This document shows, one piece after another, positions 26,961-30,202 of a stretch of 50,058 nucleotides of DNA (the first letter of the stretch is position 1; the number at the start of each line of letters is the position of its first letter). The DNA is taken from the NCBI GenBank assembly GCA_030525085.1, contig JAUNFK010000004.1, positions 1-50,058 on the forward strand, given 5' to 3'. The stretch comes from a bacterium (GTDB lineage Bacteria; Bacillota_I; Bacilli_A; RF39; UBA660). The notes beneath the pieces were generated by a model. The model made no database searches, was not told the DNA's origin, and saw only the letters and a list, made by a program, of their open reading frames with translations. The position numbers and the translations under genes are program-made.

Positions 26961-27003
26961 ATAGCACCCAATATAATTATATCAAATTTATATGTATTTG
27001 TAA

Positions 27004-27150
27004 CTAGCAACTTGTCTTTGTTTTAATCATTTTAAATGATGTGCCGATAGATTTTCCGATGTTAAAAATTACATTAATTATTCTTGCTAATGAATTTAAA
27101 AATGTTGTTGAAATTCCACCAGCAATCATGTATAATTCATTATCTTTCAT
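27004..27150 (-). CDS. Double-glycine-leader peptide B (48 aa), class IIb bacteriocin-like; missed by the ORF track
   Basis: MKDNELYMIAGG|ISTTFLNSLARIINVIFNIGKSIGTSFKMIKTKTSC*; ATG overlaps the peptide A stop (TAATG). Confidence 0.85.
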   Translation of the reverse strand: MKDNELYMIAGGISTTFLNSLARIINVIFNIGKSIGTSFKMIKTKTSC

Positions 27151-27281
27151 TAGTTACATTTAGGTCTAAGATAACCATCAAGTACTCCAGCTAGAAAAGC
27201 TCCAAGAGCACCAATAATAAGCCCAATAGTCCATTTTATGGCACCACCTGAAATCATACTTAATTCTTCATTGTTTAGCAT
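27150..27281 (-). CDS. Double-glycine-leader peptide A (43 aa), class IIb bacteriocin-like; missed by the ORF track
   Basis: MLNNEELSMISGG|AIKWTIGLIIGALGAFLAGVLDGYLRPKCN*; AAGGAG SD; start overlaps the exporter's last codons. Confidence 0.88.
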   Translation of the reverse strand: MLNNEELSMISGGAIKWTIGLIIGALGAFLAGVLDGYLRPKCN

Positions 27282-29272
27282 AAACCTTTCTCCTTTCTAG
27301 TAGTTAAGAAAAGTATTTTATCAAACTTATAATATTCTTTGTTATGACTAACGATAATTATAGTTTTGTCTTTATAATATTTGCAGATTCTGTGTATTAT
27401 TCTTTTTCTTTCGGCAGGTTCAATTTCTGATAATGCTTCATCTAATAGTAATATATCAAAGTCTTTATATAGTGATCTAGCTAAAATAATTTTTTGAATT
27501 TCACCCCCGCTAAAATTATCTTTGATTAGTGAATTAATTCCATTATATTTAGTTTTATAGATTTTATCTAAGTTTAGAAGTCTTTCTATTGTTTTAAATC
27601 TCTCCTCCTCAATAATATTATCTAAAACAATATTTTCTTTTATAGTTCCAGGAAGGATCTTTTGGCTTTGATTGACATATGATATTTTACTTCTTAATGA
27701 ATCTAAATTAATATCTTTCAAATCCGTTTTATTAATAGTTACTCTTCCATTATAGTCAGTAACTGCTTGAAATAAAATATTTAACAAAGTTGATTTACCA
27801 CTGCCATTTTCTCCTTTTATTAAGATCTTTTCACCTTCGTTTATTTCATAAGAGAAATTATCAAATATTTTATTTAATCCGATTTTATATGTTAGTGCAC
27901 TTATTTTGATGCTTCCATTTCGAAAGTTAAAACTTCTATTTTTTTCTCTTTCTAAATAATAAATACTATTAATTCTTCTGTAGGCACTTCTAAAAAATAA
28001 TATATTGGGCATTATTGTAAGAAAGTAACTTACCGATGATATAAAATAATTATTAATAAAGATAAATGTTAAAATATCACTTGTTTCTTTAGATAAGATG
28101 ATGCTGTAAATAATTATTATAATTAATGCACTTTCATTGTAGGAACTTATAAGTAAATCATTAAAAGCAATTTTTTTATTTAATTTATAATTTAATTTAT
28201 TATTATCTGTAATTATTCCTTTAATCTTTTTTAAATAATATTCTGTTTTATTTATAATTTTGATAGTCCAAGAATTAGATAGAATGCTGATTAAAGTATC
28301 TACTAAATTTGTGTTACTATCTATTGTGATTTCTAAGGTTTGATACAGTTTTTTATTATAAAAGTACACTATGATTGTTATAATTAATGTTATTATAATA
28401 ATCTTTTTAAATATTTCCTTATCAATAATTACTAGAATAGAACTTGTACATATTATTAATATTAAATTAATAATGCCTTCTATTATAGTTATAGTGACAT
28501 TTTCTTTTATCGTGTTTATATCTTCAAACCTGCTTATTAAATCGCCTTCTTTTCTTAACTGCAAATATTTAAAAGGGAGATATAAAACTTGCTTGATGTA
28601 ATCTGAACAAAGGATACTGCCAATATTATTGTTTGCTTTATATATTAATGTATTTTTAAAGTATGTTATTAAACTTTTGCTTAATAATAATATAAATATT
28701 AATATTATTAATTTAGTGTCTTTTTCTGATATGGAATCATTTAAGATAATAGTGTTTAGTAATAAAATTGAACAAATAAATATTGTTAGAATAAGAATCT
28801 TTATAAATAATATTCTATTTTCTTTTAAGGTGTTTTTTAGTAAGTTTAAAAACATTGACTTTGGTTTATAGTTAACAATGTTTTTTATTGGTGTAAGTTT
28901 CAGAATATATCCAGTAAAAACATTATTAAAGTCGGATTTATTTATTTTTCTTTTGCCAATTGCCGGATCCATAATCCAAACGAAGGATTCACTGACATCA
29001 TAAATTACAACAAAGTGTAATAAGTTATTTTGATTTATCTGAGCAATAACTGGTGAGGTATATTTAAATAAATCTTCTTTTTTGCCTATAACTTCAAAAC
29101 CGTATTTTTCGGCAGCTTCTTTTAAATTATAAAAATTAGTTCCGTCCTTAGTTGTTAAGGTGTCTACTTTTACTAACTCCACCGGAATATTTCCATTATA
29201 ATATTTTATTATAGATAGCAAACAACATGCACCGCAGTCCGCTTCGTCTTCTTGCTTTACAACAGTAATCAT
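27275..29272 (-). CDS. Peptidase-containing ABC transporter (C39 + TMD + NBD), double-glycine peptide exporter
   Basis: QEDEADCGACCL (Cys), HFVVIYD (His/Asp), Walker A GENGSGKS, FSGGE, LLLDEA; start ATG 29272. Confidence 0.93.
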   Translation of the reverse strand: MITVVKQEDEADCGACCLLSIIKYYNGNIPVELVKVDTLTTKDGTNFYNLKEAAEKYGFEVIGKKEDLFKYTSPVIAQINQNNLLHFVVIYDVSESFVWIMDPAIGKRKINKSDFNNVFTGYILKLTPIKNIVNYKPKSMFLNLLKNTLKENRILFIKILILTIFICSILLLNTIILNDSISEKDTKLIILIFILLLSKSLITYFKNTLIYKANNNIGSILCSDYIKQVLYLPFKYLQLRKEGDLISRFEDINTIKENVTITIIEGIINLILIICTSSILVIIDKEIFKKIIIITLIITIIVYFYNKKLYQTLEITIDSNTNLVDTLISILSNSWTIKIINKTEYYLKKIKGIITDNNKLNYKLNKKIAFNDLLISSYNESALIIIIIYSIILSKETSDILTFIFINNYFISSVSYFLTIMPNILFFRSAYRRINSIYYLEREKNRSFNFRNGSIKISALTYKIGLNKIFDNFSYEINEGEKILIKGENGSGKSTLLNILFQAVTDYNGRVTINKTDLKDINLDSLRSKISYVNQSQKILPGTIKENIVLDNIIEEERFKTIERLLNLDKIYKTKYNGINSLIKDNFSGGEIQKIILARSLYKDFDILLLDEALSEIEPAERKRIIHRICKYYKDKTIIIVSHNKEYYKFDKILFLTTRKEKGLC

Positions 29273-29276
29273 TTTT

Positions 29277-29325
29277 CCTCCCTTCATTAGTTATTGTTGT
29301 AACTAATTAACTCATTTCCTTTTTT
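29277..29325 (-). repeat. Left copy of a perfect 49-bp inverted repeat (contains the exporter SD)
   Basis: Reverse complement AAAAAAGGAAATGAGTTAATTAGTTACAACAATAACTAATGAAGGGAGG is identical to 30089-30137. Confidence 0.97.
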
Positions 29326-29330
29326 ATTTT

Positions 29331-29363
29331 AAAAAAACTAGTTAATTATTTTAACTAGTTTTT
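29331..29363 (-). terminator. Intrinsic terminator of the cassette membrane-protein gene
   Basis: AAAAACTAGTTAA-5 nt-TTAACTAGTTTTT 13-bp stem overlapping the stop codon. Confidence 0.85.
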
Positions 29364-30035
29364 ATCTTTATTTTTTAGTTTTTTAAGTTTATCTAAGAGT
29401 TTTGTGTTTCTTTTTACTAAGTATGGGTATGCTTCAATTAATCTTGTTTTTATTTTTTGACCTAATGCTTTTTTCTTTTCGTATTCTTCGATTAATTTAT
29501 CTAAATGGCTTGCTACGCTACTTACTTTTAATGCTTCAAAGAAACTGATTAAAAAGTCCGTTAGCATAATAATAAATATTATTATAGAAATCCACATCAC
29601 AGTTGTAGTACTCATAACATGATATAGTTTATTAAATAATGGGTTAAATAGATAAATTATTGCAACCGATCCTACTCCAAATAAAACAGAGTTTTGCAAG
29701 CATACCCTACCGTTTAGATTATACTTCTTTTCTGAATAATCCCACCACCTATTATGAAATACTTTTTCCATTACATAACTTGTTGTATATTCAAGAAGTG
29801 AACATAATACTAATCCAAAAAGGAAGATGATAAATGAATCTTTTTTGATGTGCATGCTGGTTATAGCAAAACTAACTAACATTGCCCCGTTACCATAAAT
29901 AGGAATATATGGGCCGTGCATAAAGCCTCTATTAACCCATTTTTTATCTCCTAAATAGACATAAAATACTTCACATATGTATCCAATAACTGAATAAAAA
30001 ACAAAATATAAAAATATATAAAATAGTTTTTCCAT
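29355..30035 (-). CDS. Putative ABC transporter permease (CmpB/TMEM229-like membrane protein)
   Basis: GYICEV, NRGFMHGPYIPIYG, LEYTTS..MEK.F..RWWDYS, NLNGRVCL motifs; GAGGAG SD. Confidence 0.85.
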   Translation of the reverse strand: MEKLFYIFLYFVFYSVIGYICEVFYVYLGDKKWVNRGFMHGPYIPIYGNGAMLVSFAITSMHIKKDSFIIFLFGLVLCSLLEYTTSYVMEKVFHNRWWDYSEKKYNLNGRVCLQNSVLFGVGSVAIIYLFNPLFNKLYHVMSTTTVMWISIIIFIIMLTDFLISFFEALKVSSVASHLDKLIEEYEKKKALGQKIKTRLIEAYPYLVKRNTKLLDKLKKLKNKDKN

Positions 30036-30088: not shown

Positions 30089-30137
30089 AAAAAAGGAAAT
30101 GAGTTAATTAGTTACAACAATAACTAATGAAGGGAGG
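30089..30137 (+). repeat. Right copy of the perfect 49-bp inverted repeat
   Basis: AAAAAAGGAAATGAGTTAATTAGTTACAACAATAACTAATGAAGGGAGG; ends in a GGGAGG SD 8 nt before ATG 30146. Confidence 0.97.
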
Positions 30138-30145
30138 TATTTGAT

Positions 30146-30202
30146 ATGTTATTTAGATTTTTATTTAGAGCATTATATTTAACTTTTAGAATGTTTTTAT
30201 AG
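30146..30202 (+). CDS. Putative small hydrophobic peptide (18 aa)
   Basis: MLFRFLFRALYLTFRMFL*; strong SD at optimal spacing; translation unproven. Confidence 0.45.
   Translation: MLFRFLFRALYLTFRMFL

Follow-up and report, generated by a model that had tools for sequence, protein, structure and literature searches.

A C39-peptidase ABC exporter gene and two short double-glycine peptide genes, here named pepA and pepB, form a three-gene operon on the minus strand of the window (the whole stretch of DNA analysed, 50,058 nt from a bacterial genome that is 85% complete), in the order exporter, pepA, pepB. The three are translationally coupled, genuine genes under purifying selection, and the operon starts with a module that the same genome also sets before comEA, radC and spoIIAA-sigF-spoVA. 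Genome comparisons indicate that the cassette is a vertically inherited, near-universal and mostly single-copy set of a family of gut Bacilli with reduced genomes. We read it, with about an even chance of being right, as a class IIb-like membrane-active peptide pair that the cell would release as competence or sporulation sets in, with CibAB as its nearest known counterpart. A two-peptide system with its own exporter in the near-universal core of an uncultured gut family contrasts with the normally patchy, accessory occurrence of bacteriocins.

The exporter and its two peptide genes

The exporter belongs to the PCAT/AMS type by its Pfam matches (Peptidase_C39, 1.6e-30; ABC_membrane, 4.3e-16; ABC_tran, 4e-28) and shows the corresponding layout of an N-terminal C39 peptidase, a six-helix ABC exporter domain and a nucleotide-binding domain. 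The ORF in the program-made list runs from 29287 to 27275 on the minus strand. A start at 29287 is disfavoured because the ATG there falls within the Shine-Dalgarno sequence; the true start is likely the ATG at 29272 (MITVVKQ...), 5 nt past the GGGAGG, which gives a protein of 665 aa (29272..27275). Residues Q7, C13, H86 and D102 are invariant across nine orthologues, as are the Walker A and B motifs (GxNGxGKS, DE), SGGE and the H-loop His. Orthologues with 39-61% identity were found in essentially all genomes of the genus. The best NCBIfam match was NF045998 (Mbov_0121-family cleavage/export ABC transporter) at 276 bits against a cut-off of 500, and TIGR01193 scored 239 bits against a cut-off of 524. 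The exporter falls under the curated cut-off of every NCBIfam PCAT model and is thus a divergent, lineage-specific branch of these transporters.

The exporter stop codon TAA overlaps the start codon of pepA (ATGCTAA), and the pepA stop and pepB start share 1 nt (TAATG). The pepA gene (27281..27150, minus strand) encodes a 43-aa precursor, in which a 13-aa leader ending in GG (MLNNEELSMISGG, 27243-27281) is followed by a mature peptide of 30 aa (AIKWTIGLIIGALGAFLAGVLDGYLRPKCN, 27153-27242). Mature PepA is hydrophobic, is predicted to be essentially a transmembrane helix, carries GxxxG twice (G7xxxG11 and G19xxxG23) and ends in the tail RPKCN. The pepB gene (27150..27004, minus strand) encodes a 48-aa precursor with a 12-aa leader, again ending in GG (MKDNELYMIAGG, 27115-27150), and a mature peptide of 36 aa (ISTTFLNSLARIINVIFNIGKSIGTSFKMIKTKTSC, 27007-27114). 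Mature PepB is cationic and amphipathic, with five basic and no acidic residues, a maximal hydrophobic moment of 0.65 (18-residue window), one GxxxG (G20xxxG24, GKSIG) and a terminal Cys. The AlphaFold2 model of PepB built with the alignment places a leader helix at residues 3-9 and a single long helix at 12-43, with a break at the GG (pLDDT 74). The preliminary description had already given the overlapping codons, the leader lengths and the make-up of both mature peptides, and all of these were found as it had them.

The pair is retained at 48 species-level loci, with dN/dS of 0.13-0.28 between the closest pairs despite dS of ∼0.7-1.4. Together with pepB profile matches in 239/251 genomes of the order, this places the two peptide frames far above chance. 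The 45 PepA orthologues conserve the GG and Cys42 along with an invariant G32xxxG36; the 44 PepB orthologues show no change at the GG, G32xxxG36 or C48 and very little at N19. We also looked for a clear RNA run covering the cassette and found none; one uncertain 'RNA?' run yielded two short contigs, which cover pepA and the 5' end of the exporter gene and are too weak for use.

The search of family models proposed in the preliminary description gave a split answer. PepA scored 30.4 bits against TIGR03949 (class IIb, lactobin A/cerein 7B family), above the NCBIfam cut-off of 21.5, and the same model matched 43/45 pepA orthologues; weak matches to the lactococcin G-beta and G-alpha models lay under their cut-offs. 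PepB has no match to any described family beyond the leader, where only weak matches occurred, in 5/44 members. Eleven PepA relatives, from near-identical down to 68% identity, were present in the protein collection. The pepB family amounts to 483 cluster representatives in public data by profile search, has no curated model and is often skipped by gene callers; an exact-word search for PepB returned one other called protein only, so annotation pipelines miss half of the system. Further copies of pepA or pepB were not found in the 85%-complete genome.

Both leaders have L or M at -12, E at -8, L at -7, I at -4 and a terminal GG, the pattern reported in the preliminary description. Typical double-glycine leaders are longer than the 12-15 aa seen across the family. 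A motif scan of the 85%-complete genome gave no other credible double-glycine substrate. In structure 7S5J, PCAT1 is seen with the CtA leader (ELTDEELMEMTGG), to which the PepA and PepB leaders are similar; the match to CtA is confined to the leader, and no solved structure matching mature PepA or PepB was found. In vitro, a 13-residue leader suffices for the C39 domain LahT150 (PMC6363468). At 12-13 aa, the natural leaders equal the minimal motif for C39 recognition as defined by experiment.

In each of the 48 pairs both members have a C-terminal Cys, and 117/136 mature pepB representatives contain exactly one Cys. The paired terminal cysteines offer a possible case of a covalent two-peptide bacteriocin; in a full-text literature search, no two-peptide bacteriocin with a disulfide between its chains came up. 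The gut lumen is a reducing environment, which makes an extracellular PepA-PepB disulfide uncertain.

Promoter module, neighbouring genes and immunity candidates

The operon promoter and ribosome-binding site lie in a 49-nt module (29277..29325, minus strand), which pairs with a second copy to make a perfect inverted repeat with 49-nt arms. On that strand its sequence reads AAAAAAGGAAAT-GAGTTAATTAG-TTACAACAATAACTAAT-GAAGGGAGG and includes a sigma-H-like -35 box, AAAGGAAAT (29314-29322). The second copy (30089..30137, plus strand) is 100% complementary to 29277-29325, faces outward and stands ahead of an 18-aa ORF and then of spoIIIAH-like, gerE and gerM-like genes (Pfam). Elsewhere in the same genome, copies precede comEA, a radC operon, the spoIIAA-sigF-spoVA operon and a split ORF of 127+118 aa. 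The full module occurs only ∼6 times in this genome, and no housekeeping operon is among its identifiable targets.

Promoter sequences of relatives were compared with the sigma-H consensus (PMC4754846). An RNAGGAWWW box, the sigma-H -35 element, was present 60-67 nt upstream of the exporter match at 34/56 related loci versus 6.5% of background windows. Other genera have a sigma-H-type promoter in the same position with -10 elements GTAGAAT, GTCGAAT or GCAGAAT, several of them textbook; for the genus to which the window belongs, the -10 segment (TTACAACAATAACTAAT) does not agree with the consensus at the canonical 11-12-nt spacing. No sigH above the TIGR02859 cut-off was found in the 85%-complete genome. 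A canonical SigH was set aside as a candidate, as the two sigma-70-family matches found were weak and far under that cut-off.

The tie to competence-type promoters would also suit a pair of peptide pheromones (ComC/BlpC-like), exported by the ABC protein as a density signal for competence or sporulation, and double-glycine leaders with PCAT export serve pheromones too. Several findings run against this idea, which the preliminary description had raised as a signalling pair and which we hold to be very improbable. No histidine kinase or response regulator was found within ∼10 kb on either side; the mature peptides of 30 and 36 aa, a transmembrane GxxxG helix and a long amphipathic helix, are unlike known soluble pheromones; and pheromone models match isolated members only, and weakly (ComC_Streptocco, 1/45 pepA; the EntF induction factor model, 1/44 pepB).

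The cassette is embedded in a housekeeping neighbourhood: one flank has recU, ponA, nth, dnaD and cca, and the opposite flank has the gene for the PF06541 membrane protein together with the spoIIIAH-like, gerE and gerM-like genes (Pfam). Its G+C content is only slightly lower (21-26% versus ∼29%). A mobile-element or horizontal origin was considered and rejected: transposase, integrase and tRNA signals are missing, and the flanks consist of syntenic housekeeping genes.

Reading of the flanking genes bore out the earlier statement that no immunity, accessory or two-component gene adjoins the operon, and the 85%-complete genome, window included, yielded no immunity gene. The preliminary description had named two immunity candidates. 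The first, a 226-aa PF06541 (ABC_trans_CmpB) membrane protein (29355..30035, minus strand; Pfam 7.5e-49), lies between the two module copies. It has its own sigma-A-like promoter (TTGTAA-17-TAAAAT), and an AT-rich hairpin with a T-run lies ahead of the exporter promoter at ∼29331-29363. The gene adjoins the cassette in only 17/80 related loci, and several species of the genus lack it upstream of the exporter. With its own promoter and terminator and this loose adjacency, the PF06541 protein was rejected as an immunity or accessory partner; it is a neighbour by synteny only, not a demonstrable component of the system.

The second candidate, a hydrophobic and cationic ORF of 18 aa (MLFRFLFRALYLTFRMFL; 30146..30202, plus strand), begins 8 nt past the GGGAGG of the outward-facing module. 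It appears to be co-regulated with the exporter operon by virtue of the identical promoter/RBS copy, and it is a weak immunity candidate. The nearest species retain it (MLFRFLLRTLYLAFRIIL and MFFRILRRMLFHIFTFMI, among others), but it was not recovered from more distant members of the genus.

Relatives of the window's genome carry two further genes. A leaderless, membrane-anchored pepB paralogue (C) stands beside pepB in 60/251 related genomes (24%); no C copies were found in the window's 85%-complete genome. The paralogue is a better immunity candidate than either of those proposed before. An accessory gene of ∼140 aa is present in some relatives (48%). Its product has no Pfam match, and its AlphaFold2 model (pLDDT 88) has no significant PDB fold match (best E 0.011, TM-scores <0.4); examined as a mini HlyD/membrane-fusion protein, it gave E ∼0.17-0.19 against AcrA/MexA folds. 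These two genes, like the comEA/radC/spoIIA promoter module and the core distribution, go beyond what the preliminary description contained.

Distribution and possible roles

By profile search, PepB is mostly single copy in the genomes of the order that carry it and spans 110/111 genera. In a class-wide sample PepB was found in 35/35 genomes of the same family versus 1 of ∼265 other Bacilli. Genome sizes in the lineage are 0.6-1.6 Mb. A literature search found no paper tying RF39-type bacteria to the exporter-pepA-pepB cassette. The preliminary description had proposed a new class IIb-like bacteriocin; the architecture is indeed class IIb-like, and the idea of an isolated or sporadic system gives way to one that is core to the family.

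Bacteriocins used in competition are usually accessory, patchy, multi-copy and strain-variable. Near-universal vertical inheritance is atypical for bacteriocins; this weakens the bacteriocin reading and could point to a non-killing cellular role. We consider it unlikely that the cassette encodes an ordinary class IIb competition bacteriocin directed against other taxa, without developmental link, in which the module would be a common strong promoter and a producer lacking the receptor would need no immunity. The TIGR03949 assignment of PepA speaks for such a bacteriocin, as do the classical arrangement of exporter and two peptides with GxxxG in both and the lack of immunity genes in most genomes, which fits a toxin unable to act on its own producer. 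Against it, the full module is rare in the genome, its identifiable targets being competence and sporulation genes plus one split ORF of no assigned function; a canonical sigma-H promoter occupies the same place in other genera; and a single-copy gene in nearly all genera departs from the usual pattern.

A non-toxic, cell-autonomous role is less probable still. The peptides would then stay in the producer envelope as small membrane subunits for DNA uptake, sporulation or envelope remodelling, a role consistent with a lineage-restricted, mostly single-copy core set in a housekeeping neighbourhood, with the promoter common to developmental genes, with a PepA that is essentially a transmembrane helix and, again, with the lack of an immunity gene in most genomes. 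To our knowledge, no structural membrane subunit relies on a double-glycine leader and a C39 exporter for its delivery, which counts against the role; so do the place of PepA within a bacteriocin family, the likeness of the leaderless membrane-anchored paralogue to an immunity or antidote design, and the cationic amphipathic character of PepB, typical of membrane-attacking peptides.

For the class IIb-like pair released at competence or sporulation onset, the following course may be proposed. At entry to competence or sporulation the operon would be turned on by a sigma-H/ComX-like alternative sigma factor. The C39 domain would bind the minimal leaders of 12-13 aa through the hydrophobic residues at -12, -7 and -4 and the E at -8, and cut past the GG during export. 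Mature PepA, as a transmembrane helix, and mature PepB, as a cationic amphipathic helix, might pack in parallel via their GxxxG motifs in the target membrane, possibly locked to each other by a disulfide between the single C-terminal cysteines, and together permeabilise that membrane. Neighbours, whether kin or competitors, would be lysed or made leaky and yield DNA and nutrients, in the manner of CibAB fratricide or Bacillus cannibalism. Retention of the cassette as a core set in genome-reduced gut bacteria would follow from such a gain. A toxin that hits kin is awkward to reconcile with the missing immunity gene here and with a leaderless paralogue in just a quarter or so of related genomes. 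If the peptides do kill or leak neighbours, competence-coupled fratricide would reach beyond streptococci into a large and uncultured lineage of the gut, and a route to DNA and nutrients would be suggested for auxotrophic bacteria with small genomes.

We put forward tentatively, as a possibility that we still regard as doubtful, that the cassette is a lineage-defining developmental effector and not a competition weapon: a Cys-Cys heterodimeric membrane peptide under a sigma-H-type programme, required for the lifestyle of genome-reduced gut Bacilli, probably RF39. Its action would be either the programmed lysis of neighbours for DNA and nutrients or an autocrine part in the membrane during competence or sporulation. 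In that case no earlier two-peptide 'bacteriocin' would match it in forming a core set across >100 genera or in having an obligatory disulfide between its chains.

Comparison with known systems

Peptide toxins made at the onset of sporulation are known from Bacillus subtilis, where Skf and Sdp lyse siblings and free nutrients. The likeness to the cassette is one of functional analogy only: the Skf and Sdp peptides are unrelated, are matured differently, are under Spo0A control instead of a sigma-H-type promoter and always come with immunity genes. On the export side, the cassette shares with PCAT1/LahT-type transporters the order C39-TMD-NBD, the conserved Q/C/H/D and ATPase motifs and CtA-like leaders, and differs in its divergent 665-aa exporter, which scores under all NCBIfam PCAT cut-offs.

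The class IIb features found are adjacent, co-transcribed double-glycine leader genes, a PepA within a curated family and GxxxG in both peptides; a dedicated immunity gene beside the structural genes was not found, nor was class IIb family membership for PepB. Lactococcin G, plantaricin EF/JK, ABP-118 and lactacin F likewise have neighbouring double-glycine peptide genes, a C39 ABC exporter and a GxxxG pair, with one hydrophobic and one cationic amphipathic peptide, both predicted helical. Unlike these classical systems, the cassette has no immunity gene, has leaders of 12-13 aa and carries a single C-terminal Cys in each peptide, whereas the well-studied pairs are non-covalent; it is also chromosomal, core, syntenic and vertically inherited, in contrast to their accessory, strain-variable occurrence.

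Pneumococcal ComX is one of the alternative sigma factors that make up the sigma-H group, and CibAB is exported by ComAB/BlpAB. CibAB is a ComX-dependent two-peptide fratricide bacteriocin transcribed with the DNA-uptake genes (PMC5295010); annotation assigns one Cib peptide to the class IIb family of lactobin A/cerein 7B, and CibABC occurs in every strain of its species (PMC6722419). A cibC immunity gene adjoins cibAB and no exporter gene of the operon is named (PMC5295010), and the cassette is reversed on both counts. It is further set apart by conservation over >100 genera versus one species, by a PepB without detectable described relative and by the conserved C-terminal Cys in both peptides; killing, the work of CibAB, is a prediction for the cassette. 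The two systems agree in having two double-glycine leader peptides per operon, one of them in the lactobin A/cerein 7B family. They agree too in their reach, species-wide for CibABC and in nearly every genome of the family for the cassette. A link of transcription to DNA uptake, which ComX provides in Streptococcus pneumoniae, may hold here through the module common to comEA and radC. By analogy, pneumococcal CibAB appears to be the closest known system.

Operon organization and conservation of the small frames

From the ORF list and sequence, the exporter ORF was placed at 29287..27275 (minus strand); translation probably begins at the ATG at 29272, with a GGGAGG sequence ending 5 nt upstream. 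The protein contains Peptidase_C39, ABC_membrane, and ABC_tran domains, and the C39 residues Q7, C13, H86, and D102 as well as those of the Walker A, signature, Walker B, and H-loop motifs are invariant in an alignment of nine orthologues. Two small double-glycine peptide genes follow directly on the same strand: pepA (27281..27150, 43 aa), whose start overlaps the exporter stop (ATGCTAA), and pepB (27150..27004, 48 aa), whose start overlaps the pepA stop (TAATG). The preliminary description of the peptides agrees with the ORF list and sequence: the leaders are 13 aa in PepA (MLNNEELSMISGG, followed by mature AIKWTIGLIIGALGAFLAGVLDGYLRPKCN) and 12 aa in PepB (MKDNELYMIAGG, followed by mature ISTTFLNSLARIINVIFNIGKSIGTSFKMIKTKTSC), GxxxG motifs are present in both mature peptides, and mature B has five basic and no acidic residues. 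No other GG-leader ORF was found by motif scan of the 85%-complete genome, and the exporter-peptide relation is therefore read as dedicated.

No terminator was found after pepB, so that read-through into cca-dnaD-nth is possible. A promoter-like sequence (GTTACA-17-TATAAT, extended -10 TG; 26976-27004, minus strand) overlaps the pepB stop just upstream of cca. In metagenome protein P0020 (101 aa), pepA and pepB are naturally fused in frame, and the pepB part retains its own GG leader. Two short contigs from a public run of uncertain type (X21, labeled "RNA?") cover 27160-27314 (pepA) and 29058-29270 (exporter 5' end) at ∼97% identity, which hints weakly at transcription of the operon in a gut sample.

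The public protein collection holds 11 proteins that share 68-100% identity with pepA and differ from it mostly in the leader. A word-based search with pepB retrieved one other called protein, which suggests that pepB is often missed by gene callers or shares few words with its relatives. An exporter orthologue (39-61% identity) is present in essentially every genome of the same genus, and in each fetched same-genus locus it is followed directly by pepA and pepB orthologues and then cca. We scanned one genome per species and collected 80 related loci from gut MAGs labeled "uncultured Tenericutes/Bacilli" or Candidatus Coprovivens (hosts: human, rabbit, goat, mouse, chicken, and others); the peptide pair is present in 48 of them. 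The closest pairs already have dS of ∼0.7-1.4 at dN/dS of 0.13-0.28. GG and G32xxxG36 are invariant in the alignments of both pepA (n = 45) and pepB (n = 44); Cys42 of pepA is at least 90% conserved, the last Cys of pepB is invariant, and N19 of pepB is nearly so. The expectation that the small frames are conserved thus held across 48 pairs under low dN/dS, and we concluded from this sequence conservation that pepA and pepB are real genes.

Distribution and family assignment

The pepB profile matches 239 of 251 sampled genomes of the order (238/250 of the high-quality ones; genome size 0.6-1.6 Mb), covering 110 of its 111 genera, mostly in single copy. In a class-wide sample of 300 genomes, pepB was found in 35/35 same-family genomes vs. 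one of ∼265 other Bacilli. Based on these order and class counts, the cassette belongs, as judged from genome sequences, to the vertically inherited core genome of a single family of gut Bacilli with reduced genomes. A sporadic accessory bacteriocin is ruled out by the near-universal, mostly single-copy, family-restricted presence.

The proposed HMM search for class IIb bacteriocin families gave a divided answer. PepA scores 30.4 bits against TIGR03949 (lactobin A/cerein 7B; cut-off 21.5), and 43 of 45 pepA orthologues match the same model; pepB had no family match beyond its leader. Against 1.84 billion cluster representatives, the pepB profile matched 483 proteins at E ≤ 0.001 (266 at E ≤ 1e-10), nearly all of 50-57 aa. 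Among the best 150 of these 483, 136 carry a GxxxG(S/T) core; their leaders are mostly 12-15 aa, exactly one Cys is found in the mature part of 117/136, and a Cys lies at most 16 residues past the core in 130/136. No solved structure matched mature pepA or mature pepB; the only matches were leaders, to the CtA substrate bound in PCAT1 (7S5J). In the AlphaFold2 model of pepB (with alignment; mean pLDDT 74), the leader forms a short helix, helicity is interrupted at GG, and a single long helix spans 12-43; the maximal hydrophobic moment of pepB is 0.65. Mature pepA forms a hydrophobic helix (GRAVY 0.93). A pheromone pair is very improbable, as the peptides are transmembrane-like and no kinase or regulator lies near the operon. 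The cassette is class IIb-like in its architecture and in the family to which one of its peptides belongs; that part of the original proposal stands, but the adjacent immunity gene of class IIb systems is missing from the window's cassette.

Larger cassettes and immunity candidates

Outside the window's genus, the cassette often consists of the exporter, a membrane-anchored protein of ∼140 aa, pepA, pepB, and a leaderless membrane peptide of ∼50 aa (C). The ∼140-aa protein (loci L032-L080, e.g., L032:4522-4932) lies between exporter and pepA in 121/251 order genomes. Its confidently predicted AlphaFold2 model (pLDDT 88) has an N-terminal transmembrane helix and a beta-sandwich, with no Pfam match and no significant PDB fold match; it is classed from sequence as an uncharacterized exporter accessory. 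C immediately follows pepB (loci L038-L072, e.g., L059:5776-5946 and L039:5825-5971) in 60/251 order genomes. Profile-profile comparison identifies it as a paralogue of mature pepB (hhalign probability 92.8%, E 3.8e-7), and both have a G-x3-G-(S/T)-x2-R core. C is a plausible immunity candidate, in which a leaderless, membrane-anchored copy of a toxin subunit would confer protection. Since C is missing in three quarters of the genomes, any immunity that is required usually comes from another source. The cassette of the window's genus is minimal, with no room for the accessory or C, and the C profile matches only pepB itself in the window's genome (E 0.0012). An 18-aa hydrophobic, cationic ORF (MLFRFLFRALYLTFRMFL; 30146-30202, plus strand), whose conservation is confined to the nearest species, may encode an immunity or membrane peptide regulated together with the operon, or may serve as a leader ORF.

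Promoter module and possible role

A perfect 49-nt inverted repeat (29277-29325 and 30089-30137) forms two outward-facing promoter/RBS modules: AAAGGAAA(T/A), ∼14 nt, TTACAAYAWTAANTAAT, then GGAGG. Whole-genome search detected only about six full copies. They precede the exporter operon; the 18-aa ORF, followed by spoIIIAH-like, gerE, and gerM-like genes; comEA; a 150-aa gene followed by radC; and, outside the window, a 408-aa secreted protein, spoIIAA, a sigF-like gene, and spoVAC/D/E (contig C8, ∼42966 on the reverse complement, minus strand) and a split 127+118-aa ORF on contig C4. The two ORFs on C4 (15005-15388 plus the one after it) resemble a single gene that has been split. On C8, spoIIAA and the sigF-like gene are not separated by a spoIIAB, and the genome has none; the same pattern is described for RF39 (PMC10868615), which is probably the order concerned.

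All loci of the genus share a conserved AAAGGAAAT box ahead of the exporter. In the comparison across genera, 34 of 56 loci have an RNAGGAWWW box at 60-67 nt before the exporter match, vs. 6.5% of background 90-nt windows. The full published sigma-H consensus, (A/G)(A/C)AGG(A/G)WWW-N11-12-(A/G)(A/G)(A/C)GAA(A/T) (PMC4754846), is present at several loci, e.g., AAAGGAAAT-N11-GTCGAATAA. The -10 part of the module is non-canonical in the window's genus, and no sigH gene scored above the curated cut-off in the 85%-complete genome.

The leaders keep the -12, -8, -7, -4 pattern, and a 13-residue leader suffices for LahT150 (PMC6363468); on these grounds we infer, with good support, that the C39 domain cuts after GG during export. 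Mature A and B would then pair via GxxxG as parallel helices in the target membrane, and the single C-terminal Cys of each, conserved family-wide in the pair loci and pepB-profile matches, may form an inter-chain disulfide. Released on entry into competence or sporulation, the pair would leave neighbors lysed or leaky. We give this fratricide- or cannibalism-like role about an even chance; confidence is held down by the absence of an immunity gene and of a sigH above the cut-off. An ordinary competition bacteriocin, for which the promoter link would be incidental, is a distinctly weaker possibility, and a developmental function that is autocrine, membrane-based, and non-toxic is less likely still.

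Pneumococcal CibAB offers the nearest precedent; ComX induces this two-peptide bacteriocin together with the late competence genes, and it lyses cells lacking CibC (PMC5295010). Compared with known systems, the window's cassette differs in being core-genome across more than 100 genera, in its sigma-H-type regulatory context, in its minimal leaders, in the paired terminal cysteines of its peptides, and in a second peptide family (pepB) that falls outside every curated model.
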